DNA from: Candidatus Binatia bacterium
GTDB lineage: Bacteria; Desulfobacterota; Binatia; Bin18
NCBI GenBank assembly: GCA_022820725.1
Contig: JAJEFA010000001.1
Span: 182,749-246,748, forward strand
Direction of reading: 5' to 3'
Length of the DNA: 64,000 nucleotides
Position numbers and translations under genes: made by a program. Below the pieces are notes generated by a model, which saw nothing but the letters and a program-made list of their open reading frames with translations, was not told where the DNA came from and searched no databases. Below are positions 3,972 through 35,754 of this stretch, one piece after another (the first letter of the stretch is position 1; each line of letters opens with the position of its first letter).

Positions 3972-4691
3972 TTACGGCCCCAGCGGTTCTTCTTCGAGCG
4001 TCACCGTGATTTGGAGGGGCTGGTTCCTGCGCAGGACGGAAAAGGCGACCTGATCTCCGGGGCTGTAGCGCTGCATGATTTCCGTAAAGTCCTGGGCGGT
4101 CCGAACCGGAATGTTTTCGATCGCGACAATCAGATCGCCGGCCGGATGGCGCTCCCGCGTGAGATGATCGTGCGCGGCAACAAGCGGCATGACAAACGGA
4201 CCGGCCGGTGACATGGCCAGCGCAATGATGGCGGCCTTCTTCACTAAATCGTTCCGGTCGTGCTGCGTGGGTGCATTCACACCCTCGAAACCGGAACGAT
4301 GCGCCGGACTGCCCTCAATCACGCTTAAGACCAGGACGCCCTCCGGTCCCTCCTCAGCTGTGGCATACAGGACGCCGAGATAGGTTCGTTTGGACTCGGT
4401 GACAGATGGGTCGGGCCATTCCGGGAATTGACCGTCCGTTGCAGCGGAGGACCAGTCTTCGTGCGGCTGCCAGTCTTCGAAATCAGACGCCGAGGGTGCG
4501 ACCGGGACGGCCGGTTGGGTCAGGCTGCCCTGGACAGGAATCTCCAGCACTTGCGGGGCGCCAACCGGCTGAGGATGCTGGGCCGCCTCAGCCGGAGCGC
4601 TCTGCGCCCGGATGAGGCCCGGCGAGGTCCAGAGACCGGCGGTCAGCACACCGGCCAGAATAACTGGAAACCAGAGGACACGCGCCTGCAT
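3972..4691 (-). CDS. Secreted PDZ-domain protein (signal peptide plus C-terminal PDZ)
   Basis: PDZ-like segment VLVLSVIEGSPAHRSGFEG...GDLIVAIENIPVRTAQDFTEIMQRYSPGDQVAFSVLRRNQPLQITV. Start placed at Met17 (MQARVLWFPVILAGVLTAGLW, a signal-peptide-like sequence preceded by AAAGGGGG). The ORF track starts at 4739. Confidence 0.65.
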   Translation of the reverse strand: MQARVLWFPVILAGVLTAGLWTSPGLIRAQSAPAEAAQHPQPVGAPQVLEIPVQGSLTQPAVPVAPSASDFEDWQPHEDWSSAATDGQFPEWPDPSVTESKRTYLGVLYATAEEGPEGVLVLSVIEGSPAHRSGFEGVNAPTQHDRNDLVKKAAIIALAMSPAGPFVMPLVAAHDHLTRERHPAGDLIVAIENIPVRTAQDFTEIMQRYSPGDQVAFSVLRRNQPLQITVTLEEEPLGP

Positions 4692-4770
4692 TATCGGACC
4701 CCCTTTTACCGTCCTCGCTCTTGACCGCTCATTATTCATCCCTCGCTCTCAAAGCGCAAGCAGGCGCGTA

Positions 4771-5325
4771 TTACCGGGCCGATTTGAGCTTGGCCAGCTC
4801 AGCCTCCAGCTCGCTGACCGGAAGAACCTCCCCGGGGTTCTGCATGACGCGGACAAAGCGCACGATCCCGTCCGTATCGATCAGCACATAGGCTCTCTGG
4901 CTGAGCCGCTTTTCCCGGTCCAGCCAGCCGACATAGTTTTCAACCACCTCGGGGGCGTCAAACGCGCTCAACAACGGATAGCTGAGGGCCAGTTGTTCGC
5001 GAAATATACGCTGGGAAGCCGTGTGATTCGTACTGATTCCCAGGACCACCGCGTCGAGTTGCTTTTCCTGCCGAGCATCCTGCCCGGTTGCTAACTGAAG
5101 GGTTCAGCCTGGGGTAAAGTCCAGAATATAAAACAGCAGCAGGACATTCCGTTTGCCCGCAAACTCCGAGAGACAGACCGTCTCACCGTCCTGTGCGGGC
5201 AAACAGAAGGCGGGCGCGGGGCTCCCGACCTCAACCGCGGCACCGACGGGATGACCCCACAGCAGCAGACCGGCGACGAGGACTACGCACCAATTCCAGT
5301 TCGATTTGCTCATACCCATTCTCAT
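4771..5325 (-). CDS. Bcp/PrxQ-type peroxiredoxin with signal peptide, interrupted by an in-frame TGA (5104-5106) exactly at the peroxidatic Cys position: candidate selenocysteine peroxiredoxin, otherwise a pseudogene
   Basis: Track ORFs 5104..5451 and 4771..5049 are in the same frame, separated by a TGA plus 18 sense codons. The joined protein ...LLLFYILDFTPG-[TGA]-TLQLATGQDARQEKQLDAVVLGISTN...PLLSAFD...RAYVLIDTDGIVRFV aligns block by block with E. coli Bcp (FYPKAMTPGC-TVQACGLRD / VDVLGISTD / TLLSDED / SFLIDADGKIEHVF). Start at the MRMGM (5325) behind GGGGGAGGGGGG; a signal peptide follows. Confidence 0.6.
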
Positions 5326-5336
5326 CCCCCCTCCCC

Positions 5337-5801
5337 CTAGCGTACGGCATACACATCGTAGCGCACTGCGCCCCGTTCCAGATACGCTTCTCCGACCCCG
5401 ACACACAGGCAACGATTCATCCAGAGATAGTCGGGGTGAGCGGTCTGACACCAGGGATTCGTCCGAATCGGCGTTCCGCTCGGCGGAAGCGCGCCGTCCA
5501 GAAACTGCTGATAGCCGTCCGCACCCAAATCCAACACGCCATTATAGGTCACATAAATCAACGCGCCGTCGTTCGCCTCAACAGTCGCCCGCACATCGAG
5601 ATACGCCACCCCATCGGTCCGGACGGTCAGCCAGTCCGCGCCAACCGGGCGCAGCCGGCCTTGCAGTTTGGGACCTTCAACTTCGCCGCCCGTGATGTAG
5701 ACATTGACCCGGGCACCGCCGGGTACCGGCCCTATTGTTTCAGGCGGCATCTCCAGGGTGGCGGTATAGGAAAAGAGGTGCTCCATAGTATACTCGAACA
5801 T
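5337..5801 (-). CDS. DUF3237-family protein (hypothetical), immediately upstream of the peroxiredoxin gene
   Basis: Start placed at MFEYTMEHLFSYTATLEMPPETIGPVPGGARVNVYITGGEVEGPKLQGRL..., typical of DUF3237 proteins. The longer track ORF (to 5870) adds a low-complexity N-terminal extension. Confidence 0.55.
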   Translation of the reverse strand: MFEYTMEHLFSYTATLEMPPETIGPVPGGARVNVYITGGEVEGPKLQGRLRPVGADWLTVRTDGVAYLDVRATVEANDGALIYVTYNGVLDLGADGYQQFLDGALPPSGTPIRTNPWCQTAHPDYLWMNRCLCVGVGEAYLERGAVRYDVYAVR

Positions 5802-5892
5802 GTCATCTCCTTGTTGTGGCGGCGGCGACCGGACAAGAGCAGACCTACCCCGTCCTCCCCGGAGCGTCAAGACAAGGGAAAGGAGTCAGCCT

Positions 5893-6114
5893 ATGGCAAA
5901 AGCCCAATACTGTCTCATGTGTGCCGACGAACTCTACCAGATGAGCAACTACGGAGAGCCGGCGGACGGCAAGTGGCCGCCCATGGTTGAAGACGACACA
6001 TACGGGACGCTGATTATCTGTCCCGCGTGCGAGGCGGAGCACCTCACCTTTATTGACGACACCCCCGGCCATCCGCCGGTGCGGCGTATTCGGATGCTCA
6101 AGCCCCGCGAATAG
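5893..6114 (+). CDS. Small zinc-ribbon protein (73 aa, two CxxC pairs: CLMC ... CPAC)
   Basis: Start placed at MAKAQYCLMCADELYQ, preceded by AAGGAG. Divergent from the DUF3237/Prx operon and convergent with the KamA-like gene. Confidence 0.45.
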   Translation: MAKAQYCLMCADELYQMSNYGEPADGKWPPMVEDDTYGTLIICPACEAEHLTFIDDTPGHPPVRRIRMLKPRE

Positions 6115-6116
6115 CC

Positions 6117-7511
6117 TCAGTGTCCGGCTGAAGCCTGCGCCTGTATGGCCCGGTATTCGGGCTCAAAGAAAAACTGGGATTCCCCGCCGGCAGGTTTGAG
6201 GTGGTCGAGCCAGGTCGCGTTGGGGTCAAACTTGGCAAAGAACGGCCGCTGGACCCAATCGGCATTACGCCCCTGGATAAAGCGCAGGACAAAGACCTTT
6301 TCGCCGTTTATTTCGGTGATGCCCTGCACCTCGACCTTGCCCGGCCCCGCACTCATCGACGGACCACGGGCGGTACGCGCCAGGCCGGAGACCTGGGAAA
6401 TGGCCTCGCGGTAAATCTCCCAGGCCCGAGCCAGCGGCACCTCAAAATAGTGCCGCGCCCCGGTATCGCGTTCAACAAACATATAGTACGGAATGATGCC
6501 CAAGCGGACCTGTGTCCGCCACATCCGGGTCCACACCGCGGCATCATCGTTGATATGGGCCAGCAGCGGCCCCTGACCGCGAATGACCGCGCCGGTCGAG
6601 CGCAGACGCCGGATGGCTGCACGGACCTGTGGCTGTTCCAATTCTCTCCAGTGGTTATAGTGCGCCATGAACGCCACGTGTTTACCAGCGGCGACAAGCT
6701 GCTCACACAGGCGCATGAGGTCGTCGGCATCCGCATCGCTCGTAAAACGGAAAGGCCAGTAGGTCAGCGCTTTCGTACCGATCCGAATGGTTTGGACGTG
6801 CTCGAACTCCGGTTGGATCAAAGGACGCAGGTATTCGGCCAAATGGTGGGTCTTCATGACCATCGGGTCTCCGCCGGTCATGAGCAGATCACTCACCTGC
6901 GGCTGTGAGGCCAGATAGCTATGCAGCTGACCGGCGTCGTTTGAATTAAACCGCAGCTCCTGAATGCCCACGAACTGCGCCCAGCGAAAGCAGAAGGTGC
7001 AATAGGTATGACATGTCTGGCCCTGGCTCGGAAAAAAGAGGACGGTTTCGCGATACTTGTGCTGCATGCCGGGCAGCGATTCGCCGTCCATGTGCGGGAC
7101 ATTCATCTGCTGCTGGCCGGCGGGATGCGGGTTCAGCCGGATGCGGATCTCATCTGCGGCGGCTTTGATTGCGATCCGATCCGCCCCTTTCCTGAGCAGG
7201 TCAGCCACATGCTCAAAGTCTTCCGGCTGCAACATGCCCGGCTGCGGAAAAGTCAACTGGAACATGGGGTCATCGGGGATATTGTCCCAATCAATGAGAT
7301 TCTCGATGACGTACGGATTTATGCGAAAGGGCAGGACAGTGGCGACAACCCGCATCTGAAAACGTTGCTCATCAGATAAGCGTTGCAGTTGCGGAATCTG
7401 GTCGAGGTGACGCTCATTGTACACCTTGAAGCGCGGAGCGGAGGATTCGGACGTGACGGCAATGGACGATCCGTTTGCAGTACCAGGGCCATGAGTGGTT
7501 TCGTTCAGCAT
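6117..7511 (-). CDS. KamA-family radical SAM protein (lysine 2,3-aminomutase-like)
   Basis: Radical SAM CxxxCxxC motif (TCHTYCTFCFRW). Family-typical length and conserved blocks (PSQGQTCHTYC..., GGDPMVM..., RIGTKALTYWP). Start at MLNETTHGP (Met13), preceded by GGAGG. Confidence 0.8.
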   Translation of the reverse strand: MLNETTHGPGTANGSSIAVTSESSAPRFKVYNERHLDQIPQLQRLSDEQRFQMRVVATVLPFRINPYVIENLIDWDNIPDDPMFQLTFPQPGMLQPEDFEHVADLLRKGADRIAIKAAADEIRIRLNPHPAGQQQMNVPHMDGESLPGMQHKYRETVLFFPSQGQTCHTYCTFCFRWAQFVGIQELRFNSNDAGQLHSYLASQPQVSDLLMTGGDPMVMKTHHLAEYLRPLIQPEFEHVQTIRIGTKALTYWPFRFTSDADADDLMRLCEQLVAAGKHVAFMAHYNHWRELEQPQVRAAIRRLRSTGAVIRGQGPLLAHINDDAAVWTRMWRTQVRLGIIPYYMFVERDTGARHYFEVPLARAWEIYREAISQVSGLARTARGPSMSAGPGKVEVQGITEINGEKVFVLRFIQGRNADWVQRPFFAKFDPNATWLDHLKPAGGESQFFFEPEYRAIQAQASAGH

Positions 7512-7548
7512 AGAGATACCTCCTCCGAGGAGTCTCCTCTTTCCCACT

Positions 7549-12267: not shown

Positions 12268-15200
12268 TCAATATTTCTTCTGCCAGAGAATATGGGCTTC
12301 GCTGGCACCGCCCGAACTGGAGGACGTATCGATCTGCCAGTTCGGACCGAGCTGATATTCCAGGGAGACTTTCCGCTCACCCTTCTTCGTCAGGTCATGA
12401 GCGACGGATACCTGTAACCCCTTGGGCAAAGAGAAACCAAAGCCGACCGTCCCGCCGGCGATATCCAGATTCGAGAGTTTGAGGCCGGCCCCAAGCCTCT
12501 CCAGCCCAAGCGCTTGAGAGACCGACTCGCCGATCTTGGTCGCGGCGTAACCGCTCGTGATCGCCAGCGCCTGTTTCTCAAGGTCAAGCTTTTCGCCTTG
12601 ATCCAGCGCGCTGGCCGGCTTCCCAAACAGGAGAACGGCCAGGATATCGGCATGCTCCAGTTCCGGCTGGCTGCGTAAGACGAGGCTGGGTTCGTCTGCG
12701 GTTCCCCGGACCACGGCTTCAACGACATGGTCGGGCGCCTGGTATTGCGCCACAATGTCCAGACTCGGATTGATTTTTCTCCCCCCGGTAAACTGGACTG
12801 TGCCCCCGTCCAGGGTGAAACGCCGCCCCTGGAAACCCGCCCAGCCTTGAACCACTTTGATATCCCCGACCAGGCGGGGCTCCGCCCCGCGTTCTTTCGT
12901 CACCGTGACCGCCCCAGTCAGATCAACTGCCGTGTTCGCGTGTTCGATCCGGGTATTGCGGTGGACTCGGACAGTCAGATCCATGGTCGCATTACGGGCG
13001 GCCCTGCCCTCGGCCCTTTGTTCTCTGACCGCGGCGTGCTCGGCCAGAGAGCGAGCGGTCTCACCCACCGGGATAACGAGAATGGTTTCGTCCCGATTGA
13101 CCGGCCTGCTATCGAGAAAGGCCAGGTCCGGGTGAAGGGTGGCCCGCAGAACTTCCACCGTACCGCTCAGATGTGGTGCGGTGAGGGCTCCGGATATGTT
13201 GACAGCCGCACCGACCTCGGCCTGGTACTGCCTGGTATGAATCGCCGGCCATTGATGAGCGGTCAGGGTCATATCTATGCCCTGTGGCGCGTAATTGGAT
13301 AAGCTGATGACCCCTTGCCCTGTCATCTTGCCTTTTCCGGAGACCGCAGAGATTTCCTCAATGCGCAGCGTCTCGGGCTGGGCGACCAGTACAAGAGTCG
13401 CATCGGAGATCGTCGTTCCGAGTGGAGCGACCGTCACCTGACCATTGCGGAGCGTGATTGTTCCTCGCGGGAACAGGTCCGTGAGCGGTCCGTGCAAGGC
13501 CATGTCAACATGCAGTTCCCCGGCAATATCGCTGGCTCCTTTGCCACTCAGAGCGTTCAGAAAGGCCAGGTTCAATCCGCTGGAGCGCGCGCGGGCGTCG
13601 AGGTCTCCCAGGATTCCGGTTGTGAGCCCGTTGTGCCAGTGCAGGGCAAGCGGCAGCGCCCCGGAGACCTGCAAGGCATGCTGCCCATCCTGCTCAAAGG
13701 TCAGGTCGAGCGTGGCCTGCCCGTCCCGATAGGTAAACGAAGACGACAGCCCTTTATATGGCTGTTCAGCGATGCGTAACGGATCGATAGCCAGGTTTCC
13801 CTCGATAATCGGGGTCTCGGCAGTCCCGGAGAGCCGGATATGCGTAGACAGCGCGCCGGCAACGGTCGGCATATCCGGTACGAGCGGGCGCAGCCCGGCT
13901 ACGGCCAACTCCTCGACCCATACCTGAAAATCCTGCGCGCCATGCGTTGAGACACGTCCCTCTATGGAAATACGTTGCTCCCCGTTCCTCAGTTGCAGGG
14001 CCTCAATCGCTATGGCCCCGGGCTGCTGTGTCACCGTAGCAGGTGCTTCCAATTCCCAGACGCCGTCGGGCAGTGCCAGTGCAAGCGCGTTCACGGACGC
14101 GCTCAACCGGTCGGGCCGCCGGACAATCTGCGTATCCAGATACTGCTTCCGAGACGCGCTATCCGTCGCGTGAACCGTCAACTGTCCCCCGAGAGCCTCT
14201 GTGTGCGTCAACTCCAGTTGGGCAGCAACAGATTGCAGTTCAACCCCGGCATGCAGTCCGGACAATTCAACCCCTATCCTCCCCGTCGGCCACAGTTCGC
14301 CTCCGGTCAGACGATACTCGATCATTCCTTGAGTGAGCGTCCCCCCTTGCAGCGCAACAGCGCGTGTCTGCCCGGTACCAGAGACGGCAAGTCTGGTCAG
14401 ATTGCCCTCAGCTTCACCCGCCAGTGTGAGCTGGCCTGTCCCCTTTTGGCCGGCCAGAGCCAGCCACGGGGCCAGGTCGGAGACGTTGAGCTGATACGAC
14501 AGTTTCCCCATCTCCGCTAACGTCGTCCCCAGTTCCCCCCGCATCGCCAGGCTGGCACTCCGGGCTTTGAGTTGAACATCAGCGATTTCCACCCTGCCCT
14601 CGGCCACCGAGGCATCAAGCCGTCCACTCCGTATCGATATGGGGCCAAGACGCGAAGGAGCAAGCGTAAACAAGGCCCGGGCATCCATGCCGGACAGGTC
14701 CATCCCTCTGCCCCGCACCGTACCGGACAGGTTGAGATCGCTCGTCATGACCGGGTGGGTACCGGCTTTTGCCTGCGTTCCGTTTTCTGCTCCCGCACCC
14801 GGAACCATTTTTTGCAAGTCAAGGTGGTCAACCGCAAGCGTGAACGTGTACGCAAGCTCGTCCGCAAGCCGGATTTCGGCCTTCCAATCTGCCCGACCCG
14901 AGCTCGCGGCAATCGTCCCTGCGACCTCGCCGACCTGCTGCGTGACGCTACCGGCCAGCCCCACCTCGCCGACCCGCCACTCCCCAATACGAAAGTCCCG
15001 ACCTTGAGCCACGGCATTGCCGCTCAGGCCGGCCAGATCGGCCCCCTGCCCCGCCAATTCCAGGCTCCCCTCAAAGATACCGCCCAGGGCGGCGCTGCCG
15101 CGCAGCTTTGTGAGGTCAAAGCGAGAGAAAGCCACCGTGCCGGTGTATCTGGGCTCGCTCTGACTCAGGTCGGTCCACACCTGCCCCGTGAGTTCCGCGT

Positions 15201-16143
15201 CGGCGACTGCCAGCCGGATGTCGGTGTGCAGGTCGGCGAGTTCGCCCGCAACGCGGACTTCTCCCAATATCGCTTCATGGATTGGCCAGCCGGGAACCAT
15301 CGCAGCCAGGTCAGCCCCAGCCAGCTTTTGAATGGAAAGTGTTCCGTCCAGTGTCAGCGTGTCCAGGTCTGCGACTCGGCCGCTCAACCGCATCCGGGAC
15401 TGTGCGGAAGTGAGATCAATATGAGGGATGTCAATGGAGAGATGTTCCAGGTCTCCGTACACCGACGCCGCAGCGGCGAGGCTTAGCCGTGGAGCCGGAG
15501 CCGCGGCAATACTGGTCGTCAATCTGTTGCATACGACCTGCCATTGATCGCCCTCCAGCGCGGCCCTGGCCTCAAGGGTCATCTCGTGCAAACGATACGG
15601 AGCATGGCCGGCAGAAACGACCTCGACCGCCCCGTTGTGGATAGTGACGGCACCGAGAACAATACCCGGACCGATTCCCGGCGAGGGGTCTGCGCCCCGG
15701 TCCGGGTTCGGAACCAGGGCTTGAACCAGATCCCAATTGCCCGCCCCGTCTTGGGCCAGTCGAACGACAGGCTCATACACGTCAACCCGCGTCAGGCTCA
15801 CCCGACCGCTGAGCAGCGGACGGAGCGCATACCGGACGGTCAACCGAGGAATATGCACGACCTCTTTTTTATCATACCGAACGGTCAGATCGGTGAGTTG
15901 CAGACCCCGCCACACCGACCCGCCCAGACCGCCCAGGCTGACCTCTCCGGGCAGGGCGGTGTTCAGGGTCGAGACGATCCGGCCGTGCAGGAATTTCTGG
16001 AACGGCGCAGTCCGCAGGAAAAGGAGCGCCCCAATAACGAGAACAACGCCCAGGCCTCCGACAATCAGCAGCGTCCGCCACACGTACCGCACCCGTTCTC
16101 CCTCCCTCAAAACGATTGTCCGATGCCGAAATGGACGCGCCAC
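12268..16143 (-). CDS. tamB: Translocation and assembly module protein TamB (AsmA-like / DUF490)
   Basis: 1291 aa with an N-terminal TM anchor (LLIVGGLGVVLVIGALLFL), a long beta-rich body and a DUF490-like C-terminus. Directly downstream of, and overlapping, the Omp85-family gene. Confidence 0.8.
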   Translation of the reverse strand: MARPFRHRTIVLREGERVRYVWRTLLIVGGLGVVLVIGALLFLRTAPFQKFLHGRIVSTLNTALPGEVSLGGLGGSVWRGLQLTDLTVRYDKKEVVHIPRLTVRYALRPLLSGRVSLTRVDVYEPVVRLAQDGAGNWDLVQALVPNPDRGADPSPGIGPGIVLGAVTIHNGAVEVVSAGHAPYRLHEMTLEARAALEGDQWQVVCNRLTTSIAAAPAPRLSLAAAASVYGDLEHLSIDIPHIDLTSAQSRMRLSGRVADLDTLTLDGTLSIQKLAGADLAAMVPGWPIHEAILGEVRVAGELADLHTDIRLAVADAELTGQVWTDLSQSEPRYTGTVAFSRFDLTKLRGSAALGGIFEGSLELAGQGADLAGLSGNAVAQGRDFRIGEWRVGEVGLAGSVTQQVGEVAGTIAASSGRADWKAEIRLADELAYTFTLAVDHLDLQKMVPGAGAENGTQAKAGTHPVMTSDLNLSGTVRGRGMDLSGMDARALFTLAPSRLGPISIRSGRLDASVAEGRVEIADVQLKARSASLAMRGELGTTLAEMGKLSYQLNVSDLAPWLALAGQKGTGQLTLAGEAEGNLTRLAVSGTGQTRAVALQGGTLTQGMIEYRLTGGELWPTGRIGVELSGLHAGVELQSVAAQLELTHTEALGGQLTVHATDSASRKQYLDTQIVRRPDRLSASVNALALALPDGVWELEAPATVTQQPGAIAIEALQLRNGEQRISIEGRVSTHGAQDFQVWVEELAVAGLRPLVPDMPTVAGALSTHIRLSGTAETPIIEGNLAIDPLRIAEQPYKGLSSSFTYRDGQATLDLTFEQDGQHALQVSGALPLALHWHNGLTTGILGDLDARARSSGLNLAFLNALSGKGASDIAGELHVDMALHGPLTDLFPRGTITLRNGQVTVAPLGTTISDATLVLVAQPETLRIEEISAVSGKGKMTGQGVISLSNYAPQGIDMTLTAHQWPAIHTRQYQAEVGAAVNISGALTAPHLSGTVEVLRATLHPDLAFLDSRPVNRDETILVIPVGETARSLAEHAAVREQRAEGRAARNATMDLTVRVHRNTRIEHANTAVDLTGAVTVTKERGAEPRLVGDIKVVQGWAGFQGRRFTLDGGTVQFTGGRKINPSLDIVAQYQAPDHVVEAVVRGTADEPSLVLRSQPELEHADILAVLLFGKPASALDQGEKLDLEKQALAITSGYAATKIGESVSQALGLERLGAGLKLSNLDIAGGTVGFGFSLPKGLQVSVAHDLTKKGERKVSLEYQLGPNWQIDTSSSSGGASEAHILWQKKY

Positions 16144-17966
16144 GGCTCATCATCGTCCGCAGGATCGATGGGGAAACCCACATCGAACCGCAGCGGCCCG
16201 ATACGTGTGGCGTAGCTCAGCCCAAAGCCGGGCGCAAATTGAAGATCATCAACCGGAATATCGTAGCTCTCAAGCGAGAGCTGACCAAAATCGAGGAAGA
16301 CCGCCCCGGCCAGTTCACGCCATAACGGTCGCCGCAGTTCGACCGACCCTTCGATCATACTCAGTCCTCCGAGCGGGTCGTCCGCCGCGTTCAGGGCACC
16401 AAGTTTACGTCGGCCATAGCCCCGCACACTCCCATCGCCTCCGGCATAAAAGCGCTCCGACAGGGGGATATTACGCGGTGAGCCGAAAAAGTCGCTCAGG
16501 CCCATTTTCAGGCGAGAGGCAAGGACAACTCCCCATCCGAGACGCTGATAGTGCTTCGCCTCAGCCGTCAGGTTAAAGAACCGATAATCGCCACCCCAGA
16601 CTGTCCCGGCTTGGTTGGCAACCACGGACAGCATCCCACCCTGGGTCGGATTCAGGGGGTCTTCAGTCGTATCCCAGACCAGCCCAAGAGTCGGGCCGGA
16701 CAATAGACCCTCGCGCCGCAGGCCCTCCAGAGCCCGGATGGTGGAACCGCCGACTTCGTTGAACTTCAGAAACTCGACCCGATAGCCAATAAAGCCGGAG
16801 AAGGTCGGAGAGAAATAGCGCTCGATGCGCGGACGCAGACGGGAATAATTGAGGAGATACGTATCTTCATCTTCCTGCCCTTGCTGGATGTCGCTGCGCA
16901 GCAGCGTGTCATGGTCGAGGAAGTAGGGCTGCACGAAGGTGGCTCCTATAGAGCGCTGGATGGCGGACAAACGCAGTTCCGCAGACAGGCGGCGACCGCC
17001 CCCCAACCAATTCCGGTGCTGCCAGGCCGCTCGACCGATAAACTCCTCGTCCGTACTATAGCCGGCCCCAAGCCGAATGCTGCGTGGCTCTTTCTCGGCC
17101 ACACGGATACGGATGGGGACCTGACGCGGTTTCTCGCCCTCCTGCCGGAATTCCATCTGGACCGAGTGAAACAGGTCCAGATTCAGCAGATTCCGGCGCG
17201 ACTGCTCTATAGCTGCCAGAGCAAACGGCTCGCCGGGCGCATAGGTCAGTTCTCTGAGTACGAGGTGCGGATCAACCTTCCGCGTCCCGGCAATATCGGT
17301 TGCTCCAAATGTGGTCGGCGGTCCCGGCGAGATGGAGTACGTCACCCGCGCCTGCCGGGTATTCAGGTCAACCTCGGCTTTGCGCTCGATTTCAACCCAG
17401 GAATGACCATGCTGAAGAAAAACCTGACGCAGCGCCTGATCGGTCTGTACGTAGGCCGCCTCAGTGAAGAGCGCCCCGGACTCAAGCGGGAGACGCTCGG
17501 GAAGCGCCACACCGGTCCGGGCTTTTGTTCGGACATCGACGCTCAGCGCTCCAACCGTAACCGGCTCGTTTTCTTGAATCCGCACCACCAGGGAAACGCG
17601 CCCCCGTGCGTCATCGGTGTGCAGGTCATACGTCACCTGAGCCTGATAATAGCCCCGAGTTTCATAATAGTGCCGAACCCGTTCGAGATCCCGCGTAAAT
17701 GTGACGGGATCAAAGAGCGGCTGCTGTTTCCACGGCATATACCAGGGCCGGATTGTGGTTTGCAGCTCAGCCAGCAGGGTCTCGGTATCGAACTGCTCGT
17801 TGCCGGAAAGCGCAATCGACTCGACCCGCCAGGCACGCTCCGGGTCGAGCTGTTCGAGCGAACGGGCAAAAACGACCGCCCCTCCCCAACCCAGCAGCCA
17901 GACGAAGCAAAAAAGGACTATGCCGGACACGGACCAGCAACCCTTTTTATCTCGCGGCTTTGTCAT
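16107..17966 (-). CDS. tamA: Omp85-family outer membrane protein TamA (POTRA domains plus C-terminal beta-barrel)
   Basis: Signal peptide MTKPRDKKGCWSVSGIVLFCFVWLLGWGGAVVFA; C-terminal barrel ending ...DDDEPWRVHFGIGQSF (aromatic terminal residue). Start moved to Met53 (17966) to avoid overlap with yihY. Confidence 0.8.
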   Translation of the reverse strand: MTKPRDKKGCWSVSGIVLFCFVWLLGWGGAVVFARSLEQLDPERAWRVESIALSGNEQFDTETLLAELQTTIRPWYMPWKQQPLFDPVTFTRDLERVRHYYETRGYYQAQVTYDLHTDDARGRVSLVVRIQENEPVTVGALSVDVRTKARTGVALPERLPLESGALFTEAAYVQTDQALRQVFLQHGHSWVEIERKAEVDLNTRQARVTYSISPGPPTTFGATDIAGTRKVDPHLVLRELTYAPGEPFALAAIEQSRRNLLNLDLFHSVQMEFRQEGEKPRQVPIRIRVAEKEPRSIRLGAGYSTDEEFIGRAAWQHRNWLGGGRRLSAELRLSAIQRSIGATFVQPYFLDHDTLLRSDIQQGQEDEDTYLLNYSRLRPRIERYFSPTFSGFIGYRVEFLKFNEVGGSTIRALEGLRREGLLSGPTLGLVWDTTEDPLNPTQGGMLSVVANQAGTVWGGDYRFFNLTAEAKHYQRLGWGVVLASRLKMGLSDFFGSPRNIPLSERFYAGGDGSVRGYGRRKLGALNAADDPLGGLSMIEGSVELRRPLWRELAGAVFLDFGQLSLESYDIPVDDLQFAPGFGLSYATRIGPLRFDVGFPIDPADDDEPWRVHFGIGQSF

Positions 17967-18000
17967 ATGAGGCACCAGAAAAAATAGGGGAAAAGAGCGG

Positions 18001-19314
18001 TCAAGGCCGTTCATACTCCAAGGGATCGTCGGTGGCCAGAGAGCGGAGCGTGATGCCGTCAAGGGCCTGCTCAACCGCCCGATTCCGCCGGTCGAGCAGA
18101 GTCGAGATGACATCTCCGCCATCCATTACGGCAGGCTCGCCCCCAGGCGTACGCAGGATATCCAGCACGCTCGCGACCGCAATCTGCTCGGGCGGACGGC
18201 CAGGGACTATACCTTCCGGCTCAACGGTCTGCAAGAGCACGCCTTTTGCCAGCAGTGTTTCAATCAGCGGCTCCAGCGCAGAGAGCTGAACGCGGATATT
18301 TTTGGCAAGAGCGGCAACCGACCACGGCGTTTGTTCGGCAAGATAGCGCCGCGTAATGGCGACCAGGGCAGTCAGCGCGAGCCGTTCCTGCGACAGCGGG
18401 GTTTTGCCATCCAGTTCGGCTCGATAGGAGTTCGGATGTTGATGAAAACAGGCGACTTCGGCACCCATCAAAATAATCAGCCAACTGGCGTACACCCAGA
18501 TAAAAAAGAAAACCAGGATGGCAAAACTCGAATAGATGGCCGCATAGCGTGCGGAACCGGCAATAAAGGCGGCAAAGCCGACCCCGGCCAACTGCCATAA
18601 AACGGCCGCGACCACCCCGCCTAATAAGGCGGAGCCAAAGCGTACGGCAGTATTGGGAACAAAGACGTACAAAAACGTGAAGGCAATACACAAAAAGGCG
18701 AACGGCATCAGTTGCGTCGCCACAATAATGAGCGGACCAAGCAACTCGTTCGCAATCATATACTGCACCACGGTGTGACTCTGGGCCGAGGCGATAACGG
18801 TCAATGCCGTAAAGACCAGCACCGGACCGACCAGGACCACACTCAGATAGTCACTGCATTTCTTGCCCCAGGTACGAGAGTGCCGCACTTGCCAGATATA
18901 GTTGAACGAGTCTTCAATTTTGCTGATCAGCGAGACCACGGTATAGAACAGGGTCGCCACCCCGACCGCGCCCAGCACCCCCACACGCAAGTTGCTGACA
19001 AACTCCAAGGCCCACCGGGTAATTTCAGTCCCCTGCTCGCCCAACGGCTCCAGGGCTTGAGCCAGAGACGGCTCAATGAGATTGTGCACCCCGAATGCCT
19101 TGAGCACGGCAAACATGACCGCCAAGAGCGGCACCAGGGACAGCAGGGTGACATAGGTGAGCCCCATGGCCCGCAGGCTGAGCGCGTCGTCCTGAACTTT
19201 TTTGCGGACCGCAGAAAAAAAGGAATAACCCCGTGGCAGCCACTGTGTTAGCGCTGCCCACAGGTGCTGGAGAGCGAAACTCTGTACCTTTTTGACGCGA
19301 TACTCCTGGTTCAT
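18001..19314 (-). CDS. YihY/BrkB-family inner membrane protein with a C-terminal soluble extension
   Basis: Multi-TM N-terminal region (LTYVTLLSLVPLLAVMFAVL...) characteristic of YihY/virulence factor BrkB, plus a C-terminal extension of about 140 aa. Confidence 0.7.
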   Translation of the reverse strand: MNQEYRVKKVQSFALQHLWAALTQWLPRGYSFFSAVRKKVQDDALSLRAMGLTYVTLLSLVPLLAVMFAVLKAFGVHNLIEPSLAQALEPLGEQGTEITRWALEFVSNLRVGVLGAVGVATLFYTVVSLISKIEDSFNYIWQVRHSRTWGKKCSDYLSVVLVGPVLVFTALTVIASAQSHTVVQYMIANELLGPLIIVATQLMPFAFLCIAFTFLYVFVPNTAVRFGSALLGGVVAAVLWQLAGVGFAAFIAGSARYAAIYSSFAILVFFFIWVYASWLIILMGAEVACFHQHPNSYRAELDGKTPLSQERLALTALVAITRRYLAEQTPWSVAALAKNIRVQLSALEPLIETLLAKGVLLQTVEPEGIVPGRPPEQIAVASVLDILRTPGGEPAVMDGGDVISTLLDRRNRAVEQALDGITLRSLATDDPLEYERP

Positions 19315-31943: not shown

Positions 31944-33568
31944 TACAGGCCCCCTGCCGTCCCGTCCCGACGGACTTCGGCCACCCCCTGAAAGCCGTTC
32001 CGCGTCTGGCATTTCAGGACTGCATGAATCGCGCCAAGGTAGAAGGCGTAGGGCTTGCGCCGGTCAATCTTATAGCCCATGTTTTCAAGATAACTGACCA
32101 CGCTGGGATCAAAGCGGTCGGCCTCAATGCTGAGCTTGCCCCCAATAGAACAGTGAAAGCGGGGATGCCGCATGGCTTCATCCATGGACAGCCTGCCATC
32201 ACCGCAGTGGACCAGAAACTGGCCGACCGTTGAAAAGATGCGTTCACTCCCCGGACTGCCCGTCACCATCCAGAGTTTGTCGTCATGAAAAATCAGGGCC
32301 GGCGCAACCGAAGTCCAGGGAACCCCGTTGGGTCTGAGATAAAAGGGATGAGCCGGATTCTTGACCTCAAAGGCATCCATATAATTGTTATAGAGAAAAC
32401 CAAGCTCCGCGGCGGCAGCCTTTGAGCCATAAACCAGCTCTATTGACTGCGTAATCCCAACGGCGTTGCCTTCCGCATCCATAACGGACAGGTGAGTGGT
32501 CTCACTCGGTCCCTCAGGCGGGTCAATCAATGGGAGATGGATATCCATATCGTCCCGAATCGACTTTGCCAGTTCTTTGGCAAACTTCCGGTTGATCATC
32601 TTTTTATCGGGAAACTGGGGGTAGGTATTCGGATCAAACGGACGCTCACGACGTTGCAAAAACGCCTTACGAAAGGTTTCGGCGATAAAGTGATAGGACT
32701 CCTTTGAGCGGCTCCGCAGAAACCTGGACGGCAGGTGGCTGAGCATCAACAGCACGAGCAGCAGCGTGCGCCCGGCGGCAGGCGGAGGAAGGGTGACAAT
32801 AGACAGGTCCCGGTACCGTCTTCTGAGGGCCGGCCGCTCAACCGGCCACGGTATGAGCGCCAGGTCATCCGCGCGCAAAAACCCGTCATTGGCCCGCATG
32901 TCCGCATCAATTTGCTGAGCGATCCTGCCCTGATAAAACGACCGGGGCCCATGAGCGGCGATATGTTCCAGGGTGGCCGCCAGTTCAGGCTGCTTGAAAA
33001 TCTCCCCGGCACCGTACGGCACCTTGCCTTCCTTGAGAAAATAGCGCGCTCCGGAACGTGCCGGGATGGCCAGGAACTGTTCCAGCGAGCGGTCCTGGAG
33101 GTCATGCTGAAGCGGCGTGATCGCATAGCCGTCCTGGGCGATCCGGATGGCCGGTTGTACGACGGTTGACCAATCCAGTTTGCCGTACCGAAAATTGAGA
33201 TAGCCCAGGACGGCCACGGTGCTGGGGACCGTGGTGGCTCGATAGCCAACCGCGTGATCGCCCTTGTCGAACTGACTGATATGGGCGAGCGAGGGCGCGC
33301 GGGTCGAGCCATCGATGGTGATGGTTTTCCCCCGGAGGTGCAGAATGGCCATCGTCTGCCCGCCAATTCCACTGGCCTGCGGTTCGCACACCCCGACCGC
33401 GAGAGCGGCGGCGCAGGCCGCATCGACGGCATTGCCGCCCTGCCGGAGCATTTCGACGCCAGCCTGGGTGGCATCGGGAAAGGCAGTGGCGACCATGCCG
33501 TTTTCGGCAGCCGCCGCTTTTTGATCTGCGGTTGGGGCGAAACGGCCCTCCGAGGTGGCGATCTTCAT
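31943..33568 (-). CDS. ggt: Gamma-glutamyltranspeptidase
   Basis: MVATAFPDATQAGVEMLRQGGNAVDAA... N-terminus and the autoprocessing/catalytic region ...GSETTHLSVMDAEGNAVGITQSIE... (Thr nucleophile motif), about 540 aa. Confidence 0.85.
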   Translation of the reverse strand: MKIATSEGRFAPTADQKAAAAENGMVATAFPDATQAGVEMLRQGGNAVDAACAAALAVGVCEPQASGIGGQTMAILHLRGKTITIDGSTRAPSLAHISQFDKGDHAVGYRATTVPSTVAVLGYLNFRYGKLDWSTVVQPAIRIAQDGYAITPLQHDLQDRSLEQFLAIPARSGARYFLKEGKVPYGAGEIFKQPELAATLEHIAAHGPRSFYQGRIAQQIDADMRANDGFLRADDLALIPWPVERPALRRRYRDLSIVTLPPPAAGRTLLLVLLMLSHLPSRFLRSRSKESYHFIAETFRKAFLQRRERPFDPNTYPQFPDKKMINRKFAKELAKSIRDDMDIHLPLIDPPEGPSETTHLSVMDAEGNAVGITQSIELVYGSKAAAAELGFLYNNYMDAFEVKNPAHPFYLRPNGVPWTSVAPALIFHDDKLWMVTGSPGSERIFSTVGQFLVHCGDGRLSMDEAMRHPRFHCSIGGKLSIEADRFDPSVVSYLENMGYKIDRRKPYAFYLGAIHAVLKCQTRNGFQGVAEVRRDGTAGGL

Positions 33569-35754
33569 GCCTGGAATCCCTCTGCGGCAAGGCGAATGGT
33601 CATCGCCAGGACGGCAGCACGGTCGATTAAGCTGTCGCGCAGAATATACTCGTTGGGGGTCTGCGTCGCGCCGCCGATCGGGCCAAATCCGTCCAGGGCG
33701 GGAATCCGGTCCGGGACGTGACAGATATCAGACGAAGTGTCCCGATGCGCCTGGCAGACTTTGACTTCTAATCGTTTGGCCACCTGTTCGACATGGTCGT
33801 AGAATTCCTGATCCTTTTCGTTATCGACAACAGGAAGCCGCGATACCCGCCTGGACACCCGGACCTGACAGCGCGGCGGGAGATTTCTCCGCGCAATCCC
33901 CCGGATCTGCTCTTCGAGTCGTTCCCCCTGGTCCGGCTCACGAAATTGTACGGAAAGCGCAGTACTCGCAAAGTCGGGAGCCAGGCCATACAGCGTGCGC
34001 CCTTCGAGCTGGGTCGGCTTGATAAAGATGCCGCTCTCTTCGGATGTCAGTCTGTCCCAGGCGGTCAGCTTTTGACACAGGATTTTGATCACGTCAGGAA
34101 ACTTCCCGTTCTCGCCGGTCTTGCTGTTCGATACTTCAATCTGAAAATCACTCCGACCCGAACACGAGGTCACAATGCCACCCTCAAGACTGCCGCTCTT
34201 GAGACCGACGACATAGTGAGAGTTCAGGGCGAGTTCTTCAACGATCTTCCGGCTGAAGCGGCCGCCCAGGGCGTCATCCGTGGTCAGCAGGACACCGCAG
34301 CGGATGCGGTGCAGGCGGCGAGTGAAACGCAGCGCCCGCAGGGCCGCCAGCATGACCGCCAGACCGCCCTTGCTCTCGGTAACTCCCGAACCGTAGAACC
34401 GCCCGCGCTCCTCGCGAAAGGAGACAAAGTCGCGATAGGAATAGAGGGTGTCGAGGTGGGACAGCAGCAGGATATCGTTGCGTTTACTATCGTGATTGGA
34501 GAAGTACAGGACGTTGCCCACTTCGGTCTGCGGATAGACCTGTCTTTTGAATCGCAACTGGCTCAGGACCTTGGAGAGCCAACTGCCGAATTCGTTGACC
34601 CCTTCGGAATTATAGACGTAGGTATCCATTCCAACCATGGAACGCAGGTCGTCTTCCATAGTGGTCAGGTTGCTGCGGATGTGAGACCGCACCTGGACAC
34701 GCAAGGGTTGCGTCTCATCAGGCTTCTTTTCCCGGTTCGGGAGACTGATGACGTTTGGGTCGGGCCGGCCAAAATACCGGACGGCAGCAACATCAAGCAT
34801 GCGGTTGACCAGCGTTTCATAAGTGTAGCCGGCGGTCTGGGCGGCATGCACGTACGACCCGGTTCTCCCCAGACTGGCCATCGAGTTGATTTCCAGGACG
34901 TAGGGCTTGCCGTCAGCGTCCATACGCACATCAATGCGGGAGAAGTCGTACAGCCCCAGCGCATCGAATGAGGCCCGGGCCAACTGACGGAGTTCTTCCG
35001 TCATGGTGTCGGACAGCTTGGCCGGACAGATTTTCTGTACCGGCTGCTGGAGTTTATTGTCCTGGGTCTGAATCGCGTTGGGGTCGCCGCCAAAGTCGAA
35101 TTCAACAATAGGCAGCACCTCCAGGTCCGGGCCGTTGCCGAGCAGGCCCACCGCGAACTCGCGGCCGGCAATAAAGGCTTCGACCAGCGCCTGCTGATGA
35201 TAGTTGTCGATAATCTCCTTAACGGCCTCCCGCAGGTCGTCCTTGTTGTCAACGATCTTGAGACCCATGGAGACGGCTTCCATCTTGGGTTTGACAATGA
35301 CGGGATAGGTGACGCCGTCCATATCGTCGTCCGGCCTGGCAAAAAACCAGAATCCCGGAGTTGCCACACCGTGTTGCTGAAACACGATCTTGGCCATGAT
35401 TTTGTCCAGCGCGACGGCGTGCGCCTGGGGGCCGGAGCCCACATAGGGAACGCCCAGCATTTCCAGCATGGCCGGCATATGGGTGTAACGGCTCTGCCCC
35501 TGGATGCCGTAGGCCATATTAAAGACCATGCCCGGCCGTTCCCCGGCCAACACGCGCGGCATGAAGTCCCGCAACTCATCCGCGACATCGATATTGCCCT
35601 CAACCACGCGGACGTTATGACCGCCCTTTTCCAGGGACGAGGCCACGAGTTCTACGGTATGTGGATTATAGGTTTCCTTGGTCTGCGGGCCGAAGGTGTT
35701 AATCACGTCCGAGGGATGGACTTCCCGCTTGTTGTAGATCACTGCCACTTTCAT
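33565..35754 (-). CDS. Fusion protein: N-terminal D-Ala-D-Ala-ligase-like ATP-grasp domain plus C-terminal M20-family metallopeptidase (ArgE/DapE/CPG2-like) domain
   Basis: N-terminal MKVAVIYNKREV...MLEMLGVPYVGSGPQAHAVALDKIMAKIVFQQHGVATPGF...VIVKPKMEAVSMGLKIV (Ddl-like). C-terminal ...GVTESKGGLAVMLAALRAL... (M20 signature). 4-nt overlap with ggt. Confidence 0.75.
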   Translation of the reverse strand: MKVAVIYNKREVHPSDVINTFGPQTKETYNPHTVELVASSLEKGGHNVRVVEGNIDVADELRDFMPRVLAGERPGMVFNMAYGIQGQSRYTHMPAMLEMLGVPYVGSGPQAHAVALDKIMAKIVFQQHGVATPGFWFFARPDDDMDGVTYPVIVKPKMEAVSMGLKIVDNKDDLREAVKEIIDNYHQQALVEAFIAGREFAVGLLGNGPDLEVLPIVEFDFGGDPNAIQTQDNKLQQPVQKICPAKLSDTMTEELRQLARASFDALGLYDFSRIDVRMDADGKPYVLEINSMASLGRTGSYVHAAQTAGYTYETLVNRMLDVAAVRYFGRPDPNVISLPNREKKPDETQPLRVQVRSHIRSNLTTMEDDLRSMVGMDTYVYNSEGVNEFGSWLSKVLSQLRFKRQVYPQTEVGNVLYFSNHDSKRNDILLLSHLDTLYSYRDFVSFREERGRFYGSGVTESKGGLAVMLAALRALRFTRRLHRIRCGVLLTTDDALGGRFSRKIVEELALNSHYVVGLKSGSLEGGIVTSCSGRSDFQIEVSNSKTGENGKFPDVIKILCQKLTAWDRLTSEESGIFIKPTQLEGRTLYGLAPDFASTALSVQFREPDQGERLEEQIRGIARRNLPPRCQVRVSRRVSRLPVVDNEKDQEFYDHVEQVAKRLEVKVCQAHRDTSSDICHVPDRIPALDGFGPIGGATQTPNEYILRDSLIDRAAVLAMTIRLAAEGFQA

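Follow-up and report, generated by a model that had tools for sequence, protein, structure and literature searches.

The window, that is, the whole 64 kb stretch of Candidatus Binatia DNA that was analysed, carries on its minus strand a small peroxiredoxin gene interrupted by a single in-frame TGA, with a DUF3237 gene upstream of it and a gene for a PDZ-domain protein downstream. The features of the locus are as follows.

5337..5870, minus strand: upstream DUF3237 gene (DUF3237, E 5.6e-35)
5326..5337, minus strand: purine-rich ribosome-binding stretch GGGGGAGGGGGG, directly 5' of the first ATG
4771..5325, minus strand: complete coding sequence of the putative selenocysteine (Sec) peroxiredoxin, 184 codons plus the stop TAA at 4771-4773
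5236..5325, minus strand: predicted signal peptide (MRMGMSKSNWNWCVVLVAGLLLWGHPVGAA) ahead of the mature N-terminus VEVGSPAP, recognised from sequence features by inspection
5203..5205, minus strand: codon of Cys41 (FCLP), which does not vary within the family and opens strand 41-44 of the AF2 model
5173..5175, minus strand: codon of Cys51 (VCL), which does not vary within the family and closes strand 49-51 of the AF2 model
5104..5106, minus strand: in-frame TGA, probable Sec codon 74 at the peroxidatic position (FTPG-U-TLQ), from the orthologues and the alignment with Cys homologues
5071..5087, minus strand: SECIS-like hairpin CCGGGCA-GGA-UGCUCGG, 7 bp, -10.0 kcal/mol
4894..4896, minus strand: codon of Arg144, the conserved peroxiredoxin active-site Arg, invariant in the 60-sequence alignment
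3972..4739, minus strand: downstream PDZ-domain protein (PDZ_2, E 7.6e-10)

Read on the minus strand from 5325 to 4771, the frame holds exactly one internal stop, the TGA at 5104-5106, which is codon 74 and directly follows ...LLLFYILDFTPG. The earlier note had stated that the open reading frames 5104..5451 and 4771..5049 share one frame and are separated by this TGA and 18 sense codons, and the translation bears this out. The coding sequence may begin at the ATG at 5325, 5319 or 5313, of which the orthologues favour 5313 (the M of MSKSNW). The ribosome-binding site that had been proposed ahead of the gene is found as a G-run, the first G of which also completes the TAG stop codon of the DUF3237 gene upstream. 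Public gene callers divide the peroxiredoxin gene into two fragments, and in a protein search all 38 of the listed matches at 60-98% identity were C-terminal pieces, with no full-length product among them. TGA is the commonest ordinary stop among the window ORFs taken as genes (18 of the 42 stops counted); hence UGA has not been reassigned genome-wide. The window was also scanned for other in-frame TGAs with coding-like flanks and, apart from the peroxiredoxin gene, these appeared by eye to be antisense artefacts. Likewise, the abutting pairs of ORFs joined by TGA at 38764/40561 and 32746/33565 represent either ordinary neighbours or spurious ORFs.

The assignment of the product to the peroxiredoxins is based on profile, alignment and structural comparisons. 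With U read as C, it matches the Pfam AhpC-TSA profile (PF00578) at 77.5 bits over a cut-off of 26 (E 1.1e-21), residues 33-157 covering positions 1-123 of 124, so that the alignment to the AhpC/TSA model suggested previously gives a match to the whole profile. In an alignment of 60 sequences the TGA falls, as had been claimed, at the position of the catalytic Cys, where about 50 Cys homologues have the Cys of TPGC, which makes a clear Sec/Cys pair. The nearest Cys homologue among the matches listed (P0039) is 44% identical. An AF2 model built from an alignment, with X at position 74, has a mean pLDDT of 83.6 (45 for a single-sequence model with X), and in it helix 76-80 begins two residues past residue 74. 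The predicted structure is a thioredoxin-like peroxiredoxin fold in which helix alpha2 has the catalytic residue at its N-terminal end, and its top Foldseek matches are all peroxiredoxins (Bcp1, Bcp4 and AhpE; target-normalised TM up to 0.89, E ~1e-13 to 1e-15).

The earlier note had called the protein a Bcp-type peroxiredoxin; the peroxiredoxin part of this description stands, and clean membership of Bcp/PrxQ does not. The best NCBIfam match is Bcp (PRK09437), at 63.3 bits below a cut-off of 140; PrxQ (NF053650) gives 55.8 bits (cut-off 260) and the Sec-peroxiredoxin equivalog PrxU (NF040737) 40.9 bits (cut-off 270), and the protein lies under every curated NCBIfam peroxiredoxin cut-off; no curated AhpE profile was among the NCBIfam matches at E up to 0.01. 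The Bcp/PrxQ proteins (Bcp1 and Bcp4 of S. solfataricus, PrxQ of S. tokodaii and Bcp of E. coli) do provide the top PDB matches, 2ywn (PrxQ; E 1.5e-16) and 3drn (E 5e-15). The Binatia protein, however, lacks the YGK...G insertion before the Arg that is typical of Bcp, and position Cp+5, where Bcp has its resolving Cys, is Ala or Ser in the orthologues. The 1-Cys AhpE of M. tuberculosis (Rv2238c) is also among the best matches (phmmer E 2.5e-15; Foldseek target-normalised TM 0.86-0.89, rmsd about 2 A) and shares with the Binatia protein the short loop ahead of the active-site Arg and the absence of a resolving Cys after the peroxidatic residue. Unlike the Binatia protein, AhpE is cytoplasmic and Cys-based, keeps the motif Pro (FFPLAFTGIC), is only about 30% identical and does not have the two extra Cys upstream of the catalytic position. 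The fold is thus nearest to archaeal Bcp and to M. tuberculosis AhpE, with about equal similarity to both.

Sec-containing peroxiredoxins are an established prokaryotic selenoprotein family (PMC13188914; PMC1794560). The known members (PF00578, TxxU; PrxU of Eubacterium acidaminophilum and proteins of Deltaproteobacteria and Clostridia) share with the Binatia protein the AhpC/TSA fold, a Sec (putative in Binatia) in place of the peroxidatic Cys in T-x-x-U, and a SECIS hairpin, here a candidate one, within the ORF just past the UGA. They differ in that the Binatia protein is no PrxU equivalog by the score given above, carries a predicted signal peptide, has lost the motif Pro, has two invariant N-terminal Cys and occurs with a PDZ partner or fusion. 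The hosts differ as well, being anaerobic Deltaproteobacteria and Clostridia in PMC1794560 and Candidatus Binatia here.

The signal peptide noted earlier was supported by inspection of features rather than by a trained predictor. Each of the 42 sequences shows a hydrophobic core, whose best 10-residue Kyte-Doolittle mean is 1.9-3.4, and an AxA-like motif of small residues (VGA, AFA, AWA, VFA) two to three residues before EVGSPAP, and most of them have an n-region with K/R. The Binatia peroxiredoxin is thus presumably exported to the cell envelope. The terms 'signal peptide' and 'periplasm' have no occurrence in the selenoprotein reviews PMC13188914 and PMC1794560. Among Cys-based enzymes, PprX of Caulobacter crescentus, a periplasmic peroxiredoxin of BCP/PrxQ type, is likewise small, carries an N-terminal signal sequence and acts in the cell envelope (PMC3322552), and it is the best functional counterpart of the Binatia protein. 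PprX differs in having Cys, the full PxxxTxxC motif and a resolving Cys. Its re-reduction needs a periplasmic thioredoxin-like protein fed by a transporter of DsbD/ScsB type (PMC3322552). No TlpA, ScsB or DsbD gene was found near the Binatia gene among the window ORFs scanned against Pfam.

The absence of a resolving Cys, which had been stated for the whole protein, holds only downstream of Sec, where there is no Cys; upstream stand the invariant C41 and C51, both in the N-terminal beta-hairpin of the mature protein. These two more likely form a structural cross-strand disulfide of the type typical of exported proteins than take part in recycling.

The DUF3237 gene, 11 nt from the peroxiredoxin start, is present in the orthologous locus L001 and absent from subclade B (L002), and is hence an optional member of the operon. 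The PDZ protein has its likely start at the ATG at 4691, behind AAAGGGGG, and has a predicted signal peptide of its own (MQARVLWFPVILAGVLTAGLW...) and no Cys. Its gene occurs in synteny in L001, and in subclade B (L002, L025, L026) it forms a fusion with the peroxiredoxin gene. As the PDZ protein also appears to be exported and one subclade has it in a single chain with the peroxiredoxin, it would be a physical partner, for which targeting or scaffolding is our guess.

Instead of a peroxidase, the protein might be an exported selenoprotein acting as a thiol/selenol oxidoreductase of the envelope, either TlpA/ResA-like or a reductase for oxidised clients delivered by the PDZ protein, and the conserved PDZ partner or fusion does suggest protein or peptide clients. 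Selenoproteins termed 'Prx-like thiol:disulfide oxidoreductase' are recognised as a class of their own (PMC13188914), and the scores under all the curated peroxiredoxin cut-offs would suit such a role. Moreover, the Pro of PxxxTxxC is replaced by I, V, L or M in all 41 orthologues. Since this motif is described as 'absolutely conserved' in peroxiredoxins (PMC3322552), peroxidase activity is an assumption. Nevertheless, Thr71, U74 (replacing Cys) and Arg144 are present and invariant, a UxxC or CxxU redox pair is absent, and the nearest structures are all true peroxidases, and the oxidoreductase alternative is considered unlikely.

The nature of codon 74 is best explained with the orthologues. 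A survey of genome contigs yielded 41 orthologous loci (39 species-representative genomes and 2 metagenome chromosomes), mostly of Candidatus Binatia and 60-99% identical. The earlier note had asked whether relatives carry TGC or TGA at this position; the codon is TGA in all 41, which goes beyond chance, and is TAA, TAG, Cys or any other sense codon in none of them. The 41 sequences have no further stops or frameshifts. In distant pairs, pS is 0.5-0.9 (near saturation) and pN 0.1-0.3 on either side of the TGA (24 codons upstream of it and 72 downstream), and both halves of the gene are under strong purifying selection. As the stop sits at the catalytic-Cys position in all 41 orthologues, comparison of the sequences indicates that UGA-74 very probably encodes selenocysteine, in what would be a secreted antioxidant enzyme.

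A candidate signal for the recoding lies immediately downstream. The weak stem seen by eye in the earlier note (CCGGG...CUCGG) exists as the 7-bp hairpin at 5087-5071 (-10.0 kcal/mol), and a stable hairpin thus follows soon after the UGA, its stem starting 17 nt after the codon and its apical loop GGA occupying nt 27-29 when the U of the UGA is counted as the first. Hairpins of 5-8 bp with a G-rich apical loop stand just 3' of the UGA in all three subclades, and their sequences differ, namely CCGGGC-AGGAU-GCUCGG in subclade A (that of the window), CCGGAC-GGGC-GUCCGG in subclade B and CCUCC-GGKCA-GGRGG in subclade C. In all three it is the most stable of the 121 windows of 27 nt scanned from -120 to +240 around the UGA, at -10 to -13 kcal/mol where -2 to -6 is typical. 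Bacterial SECIS elements are described as having a small apical loop with a conserved G as their hallmark (PMC1088965), and the apical loops shown or folded have G at their first two positions.

The SECIS of E. coli fdhF is likewise a hairpin inside the ORF immediately 3' of the UGA, and its loop GGUC at nt 22-25 matches, in sequence and position, the GGUC(A) of subclade C at nt 22-26 from the U of UGA. The window's own subclade differs in having its best stem 4-5 nt further downstream, and an equivalent of the bulged U17 of fdhF was not seen in the Binatia hairpins. U17 and G23/U24 of fdhF are determinants of SelB recognition. Single-sequence z-scores of the hairpins against dinucleotide shuffles are weak (mean -0.77). 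Changes within subclades are nearly all from G-U to G-C, and covariation did not exceed the shuffle controls. In subclade A, synonymous recodings are about as stable as the native hairpin (median fraction as stable 0.57), with no excess stability. As recodings of the same peptide fold about equally well, that test lends no support to RNA-level selection beyond the protein sequence. Rfam gave no SECIS family and no tRNA-Sec, either for the whole window at the gathering threshold or for 4980-5160 at E up to 10. The Binatia hairpin is regarded as a candidate SECIS element that may be bound by SelB.

The genes for Sec insertion were looked for in the window and the syntenic loci. ARAGORN found no tRNA-Sec in the 64 kb window and all 41 loci, tblastn with E. 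coli SelA, SelB and SelD gave no match at E up to 0.01 in the same DNA, and Pfam scans of 42 of the larger window ORFs showed no Sec-pathway, thioredoxin-like or DsbD/CcdA protein. These searches of the 64 kb window and ~300 kb of syntenic loci covered ~1% of a genome and neither support nor refute Sec. No work joining Binatia or Binatota with selenocysteine was found in the literature searched. Taken together, the invariant TGA, the purifying selection and the hairpin in each subclade lend strong support to the earlier reading of a Sec codon in a peroxiredoxin with a signal peptide.

The remaining alternatives concern what happens at the UGA. The comparative data show that the codon is read and not which residue enters, and the UGA may be recoded to something other than Sec, by a Cys-tRNA with a UCA anticodon acting through SelB or EF-Tu, or by near-cognate read-through with Trp or Cys. 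This is very unlikely. The codon occupies the one position where exchange of Sec and Cys is the rule in known selenoproteins (PMC1794560), peroxiredoxins accounting for 5 Cys-to-Sec events (PMC1794560), and downstream of it comes a hairpin of SECIS type whose loop is like that of fdhF. If the residue were Cys, reversion to TGC or TGT would be expected somewhere among the 41 lineages.

Alternatively, the UGA would be a true stop, which yields a secreted N-terminal peptide of 73 residues and, by re-initiation, a separate C-terminal protein of 110 residues. Gene callers do place starts just after the TGA, and an ATG stands one or two codons past it in four loci (L027, L029, L031, L033). The residues right after the TGA are, however, TLQL, TMQL, MLQL or TVQL among the 41 orthologues, so a start codon is not conserved there; most have no usable start near the TGA (ACC CTT/CTC/CTG CAG), and a Shine-Dalgarno sequence was not seen by eye. 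The stop is always TGA and never TAA or TAG, which is unexpected if termination alone mattered. Furthermore, the division at the active site cuts a single thioredoxin-like fold in half, and the C-terminal piece would have neither a signal peptide nor the catalytic residue. Termination at codon 74 is therefore highly improbable. The earlier note's own alternative, a recently inactivated and decaying pseudogene in which a Cys codon TGC or TGT became TGA, would take one base change and would agree with the broken gene calls, but it is effectively refuted by a TGA fixed in 41/41 orthologues down to 60% identity with neither a TGC/TGT form nor secondary lesions, by the selection on both halves (the sole frameshifted copy among the matches listed is P0037, on one metagenome contig), and by a synonymous divergence (pS up to 0.9) which shows that the orthologues are not one clonal sequence.

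The preferred reading, to which we assign a probability of roughly 80%, is that the gene yields one polypeptide of ~184 residues with a peroxiredoxin fold, which would be exported through its N-terminal signal peptide and in which UGA-74 would be read as Sec, directed by the hairpin 17 nt downstream together with, presumably, SelB and Sec-tRNA(Sec). Once in the envelope, the enzyme would use its selenolate to attack H2O2 or organic hydroperoxides, and the selenolate would become a selenenic acid, with Thr71 and Arg144 assisting the attack on the peroxide as in peroxiredoxins generally. For recycling the enzyme may depend on an external thiol reductant of the periplasm, as PprX with its Cys does, or may involve one of its invariant N-terminal Cys. 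We infer the Sec insertion, the peroxidase chemistry, the envelope location and the reductant alike.

The chemistry of Sec-peroxiredoxins is already known; the presumably exported, unannotated variant of Binatia is new. The fuller picture, for which we see an even chance, is that of the first recognised periplasmic Sec-peroxiredoxin, specific to Binatia and devoid of the otherwise invariant Pro, whose Cys pair serves either to staple the N-terminal hairpin or to resolve the selenenic acid and which forms a unit with an exported PDZ protein, fused to it in some lineages. The protein would join Sec at the peroxidatic site with export to the envelope, two properties described only separately in the literature found. 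Outside the cytoplasm the constraints of re-reduction and over-oxidation differ, and the resistance of Sec to irreversible over-oxidation could be the selective reason for its use. The lost motif Pro and the PDZ fusion offer testable handles on the determinants of peroxiredoxin reactivity and on the way in which a peroxidase of the envelope locates substrates or partners. The annotation would be corrected in at least 39 species-level genomes, where gene calls split the peroxiredoxin, and the presence of a Sec-peroxiredoxin gene would imply that Binatia decode Sec. If true, this would mean that a widespread, uncultured lineage of soil and groundwater uses selenium to defend itself against peroxides outside the cytoplasm.

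The gene at 5325->4771 is read, with a probability of about 0.8, as encoding a functional, exported peroxiredoxin-fold enzyme in which the UGA is recoded as selenocysteine (Sec). It is one open reading frame with a recoded UGA at the catalytic position, a peroxiredoxin fold that keeps its Thr and Arg, signal-peptide features and a linkage to a PDZ protein. The features concerned are the following.

5325->4771, minus strand: putative Sec-peroxiredoxin reading frame, 184 codons in a single frame, ending in TAA
5104-5106, minus strand: its sole internal stop, TGA, at codon 74, directly after ...NVLLLFYILDFTPG
5087-5071, minus strand: hairpin after the UGA, 7 bp, -10.0 kcal/mol
3972-4739, minus strand: next gene downstream, a Cys-free PDZ protein (PDZ_2, E 7.6e-10) with its own hydrophobic N-terminus
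5337-5870: upstream DUF3237 gene, abutting the peroxiredoxin start and missing from the orthologous contig L002

Translation confirmed that the two mechanical ORFs quoted in the earlier note share one frame, with the TGA and 18 sense codons between them, and the G-rich ribosome-binding stretch, the hydrophobic N-terminus and the stem CCGGG...CUCGG were found where that note had placed them. Its proposal that the TGA takes the peroxidatic-Cys position also held: the product with the stop replaced by Cys matched Pfam AhpC-TSA along the full profile (E 1.1e-21, 77.5 bits vs a cut-off of 26) as well as Redoxin, and when it was aligned with about 50 Cys-containing homologues, the TGA lined up with the Cys of their TPGC. 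TGA is the commonest ordinary stop among the window ORFs taken as genes (18/42 stops), so UGA is not reassigned genome-wide. Opposite the peroxiredoxin and DUF3237 genes lie two antisense ORFs, 4612-5094 (+, 160 aa) and 5193-5990 (+, 265 aa), which resemble the spurious frames common in DNA of 60% G+C.

The fate of this codon in relatives bears directly on whether the gene is intact. In a protein search with the joined sequence, the best 38 matches (60-98% identity) were without exception PDZ fusions or pieces of about 102-110 aa beginning just past the TGA position (1-4 residues past it for those of 105-110 aa), and the first full-length match was a Cys homologue, P0039, at only 44% identity. 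Public records returned only fragments and no full-length product of the Sec-peroxiredoxin gene. Since the close relatives all came back as post-TGA pieces, gene callers split each at the same spot. Orthologous DNA came from L001 and L002, both contigs of megabase size, and from 39 loci that turned up when one genome per species was scanned; nearly all these records are titled Candidatus Binatia. Codon 74 was TGA in 41/41 loci, never TAA, TAG, TGC or TGT, which settles the TGC-or-TGA check proposed earlier, and none of the 41 held a further stop or a frameshift. The N-terminal half is likewise kept across these loci, as a signal peptide followed by EVGSPAPxFCLP...VCLxDFxGxxNVxLLFYxLDFT[P/S/D]G.

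Nei-Gojobori counts against the window sequence, covering 24 codons before the TGA and 72 after it, gave pS of 0.5-0.9 and pN of 0.1-0.3 in distant pairs on both sides, and this low pN against high pS implies purifying selection on both halves. A decaying gene cannot give such a pattern, and the recently inactivated pseudogene, which the earlier note had kept as its alternative, is ruled out by the invariant TGA, the lack of any other lesion in the 41 loci and this selection. The selection tracks the minus-strand frame and not the antisense ORFs. Separate translation of the second half is unlikely, as the post-TGA codons (TLQL, TMQL, MLQL, TVQL) give no conserved start. Indirectly, selection on both halves in 39 species argues that the UGA must be read, and we regard the codon conservation as decisive evidence for its recoding. 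The only disrupted copy seen is P0037 (ENA contig, 27,881 bp), where the gene call opens with ~30 residues from a different frame (MPGRKNNSTPWFWASVPITPPPSASSANNWALSYPLL...), through either a frameshift or an assembly error. Several records (L006, L023, L024, L027-L032, L034) bear the titles 'uncultured Enterobacteriaceae bacterium', 'Chloroflexi', 'Deltaproteobacteria' or 'Thermodesulfobacteriota', which seem to be placeholders or to reflect outdated taxonomy, and the gene they carry is of Binatia type.

The orthologues form three subclades, of which A holds the window's own gene and B the PDZ fusions. They differ in peptide and nucleotide sequence past the UGA, yet a hairpin occurs in each.

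Subclade A: CCGGGC-AGGAU-GCUCGG, stem from 17 nt past the UGA
Subclade B: CCGGAC-GGGC-GUCCGG, one G-C pair of A replaced by A-U
Subclade C: (CU)CCUCC-GGKCA-GGRGG(AG), from 12-15 nt past the UGA

When a 27-nt window was slid from -120 to +240 around the UGA (121 positions, each subclade separately), stability peaked in every subclade at a position whose start lay +9 to +15 from the UGA's U; the mean was -10 to -13 kcal/mol there, and other positions typically gave -2 to -6. The E. coli fdhF SECIS, whose sequence was retrieved as a reference, has its apical loop GGUC at nt 22-25 from the U of UGA; by comparison, the subclade C loop (GGUCA/GGGCA) occupies nt 22-26 and the window's loop (GGA) nt 27-29. 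Both nucleotide alignments, between them covering all distinct sequences, show no variation at G22, G23 and C25. In work of the Böck laboratory, G23/U24 of fdhF are reportedly the SelB contacts. The hallmark of bacterial SECIS elements is a conserved G in a small apical loop (PMC1088965). Other results speak against a SECIS element: z-scores of single sequences, measured against dinucleotide shuffles, are weak (mean -0.77), variation inside subclades is nearly all G-U to G-C and does not exceed shuffle controls, and no Rfam family matched at the window or the hairpin region. In subclade A, moreover, recoding the same peptide with synonymous codons gives folds about as stable as the native one, so the amino-acid sequence itself carries the hairpin. 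The Sec family has an invariant Gly-Gln at U+7 and U+8, where Cys homologues have a Phe-Arg consensus, with Leu/Val in some; this fits, and does not prove, a peptide after Sec that was shaped by the RNA element. Overall, the SECIS evidence for the hairpin is moderate.

The window and fetched loci, at ~1% of a genome not informative on this point, contained no tRNA-Sec, and tblastn with the E. coli proteins found no SelA, SelB or SelD homologue in the same ~1%. Pfam scans of 42 of the larger window ORFs showed nothing relevant to Sec, and no publication was found linking Binatia or Binatota with selenocysteine.

The family fits none of the curated NCBIfam kinds of peroxiredoxin. Its scores fall below every cut-off: Bcp 63 vs 140, PrxQ 56 vs 260, Tpx 42 vs 123 and the Sec-peroxiredoxin PrxU 41 vs 270. 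The earlier label 'Bcp-type' is not a clean fit; S. tokodaii PrxQ/Bcp (2ywn, E 1.5e-16) and the 1-Cys AhpE of M. tuberculosis (E 2.5e-15) are its best solved relatives. An AF2 model (X at residue 74, 60-row alignment) has a mean pLDDT of 83.6, mostly >90 across the mature domain and falling in residues 81-90, which the hairpin region encodes. In Foldseek it matches Bcp1, Bcp4 and AhpE (target-normalised TM 0.82-0.89), with catalytic T71, U74 and R144 all in place. The Pro of PxxxTxxC, a motif called absolutely conserved (PMC3322552), is I/V/L/M in the whole family of 41 orthologues. A non-peroxidase oxidoreductase role, the main functional rival to a peroxidase, is considered improbable.

The description as 1-Cys without a resolving Cys holds for Cp+5, the resolving-Cys site of Bcp, which is Ala or Ser in the Sec family; it fails to account for two invariant Cys in the mature N-terminus, C41 (FCLP) and C51 (VCL), where Cys homologues have Thr, Ser or Asn. 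These flank a variable-length loop and, in the model, make up the outer ends of strands 41-44 and 49-51; they would form a cross-strand disulfide, natural in an exported protein. Less probably, they may serve in a resolving role.

Export was judged by inspecting sequence features, with no trained predictor. A hydrophobic core (best 10-residue Kyte-Doolittle mean 1.9-3.4) is present in all 42 sequences (the 41 loci and the window's gene), as is a small-residue motif (VGA, AFA, AWA, VFA) 2-3 residues ahead of EVGSPAP, and most sequences have K/R before the core. The signal peptides of L039, L040 and L041 include (T/A/I)-R-R-(F/L)-(H/Y)-L (e.g. MHTRRFHLLIG, ~75-80 codons before the TGA, at 2998 in these loci), which is similar to the twin-arginine (Tat) motif. 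RR is missing there in the window's subclade (MSKSNWNWCVVL...), and the export route may differ between subclades. The PDZ gene is syntenic in L001, and in subclade B (L002 9707-10852, L025, L026; P0020-P0030) the peroxiredoxin is fused in frame to this PDZ protein through a linker rich in Pro/Ser/Ala/Glu, the post-Sec part being 302 residues vs 110. Genes that are separate in some lineages and fused in others indicate, as a gene-fusion argument, that the two proteins act together in one compartment.

The wider neighbourhood holds further envelope genes. At 12268-18125 (-), a TamB-like protein (1292 aa) adjoins an Omp85/POTRA protein (TamA/BamA-like), which points to a diderm envelope consistent with a periplasmic peroxiredoxin. 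A gamma-glutamyltranspeptidase gene (31946-33727, -, Pfam E 3e-116) showed no link to the peroxiredoxin; such enzymes are usually periplasmic and act on glutathione, and it is a possible hint of envelope thiol metabolism. From ~38.7 to 63 kb runs a big envelope-polysaccharide cluster with an ABC exporter, a Bac_transf sugar transferase, many GT2/GT4 glycosyltransferases, methyltransferases, a carbamoyltransferase, a Wzm/Wzt-type ABC-2 transporter, a predicted multi-pass membrane protein, O-antigen-ligase-like by eye, and a 620-aa ORF without a Pfam match (46796-48655, -). Nearer the gene, ORF 5800-6114 (+, 104 aa, no Pfam match) overlaps the 5' end of the mechanical DUF3237 ORF, and at the matching place in L001 and L002 a 73-aa gene is called on the opposite strand. 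ORF 6117-7547 (-, 476 aa) has no Pfam match at E up to 0.001 and carries CxxxCxxC (CHTYCTFC), as in radical-SAM/KamA-like enzymes; at the same syntenic place, between ClpB and the peroxiredoxin gene, L001 and L002 encode a 464-aa protein without a Pfam match.

In the proposed mechanism, Sec would be inserted SelB-dependently with the hairpin as guide, and the protein exported and its signal peptide cleaved. The selenolate would then attack peroxide to give a selenenic acid, to be reduced by a periplasmic thioredoxin-like donor or a low-molecular-weight thiol, and the PDZ protein could be a scaffold or targeting partner. PprX, a known exported Cys-peroxiredoxin, is reduced via TlpA and ScsB/DsbD (PMC3322552). 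Among prokaryotic selenoproteins, Sec-containing peroxiredoxins (PF00578, TxxU) form an established family; PrxU was characterised in 2001, and a count in 2006 gave 12 members and five independent Cys-to-Sec events, mostly in anaerobic Deltaproteobacteria and Clostridia (PMC13188914; PMC1794560). The terms signal peptide and periplasm occur in neither paper (PMC13188914; PMC1794560), an absence of mention and not proof of novelty. The Binatia family would work like both the Sec-peroxiredoxins and PprX but belongs to neither curated family; what is new is that Sec is combined with export, together with the lineage, the motif without Pro, the pair of Cys and the PDZ partner or fusion. The Binatia Sec-peroxiredoxin brings no new principle; it is a solid, annotatable selenoprotein family with unusual features.
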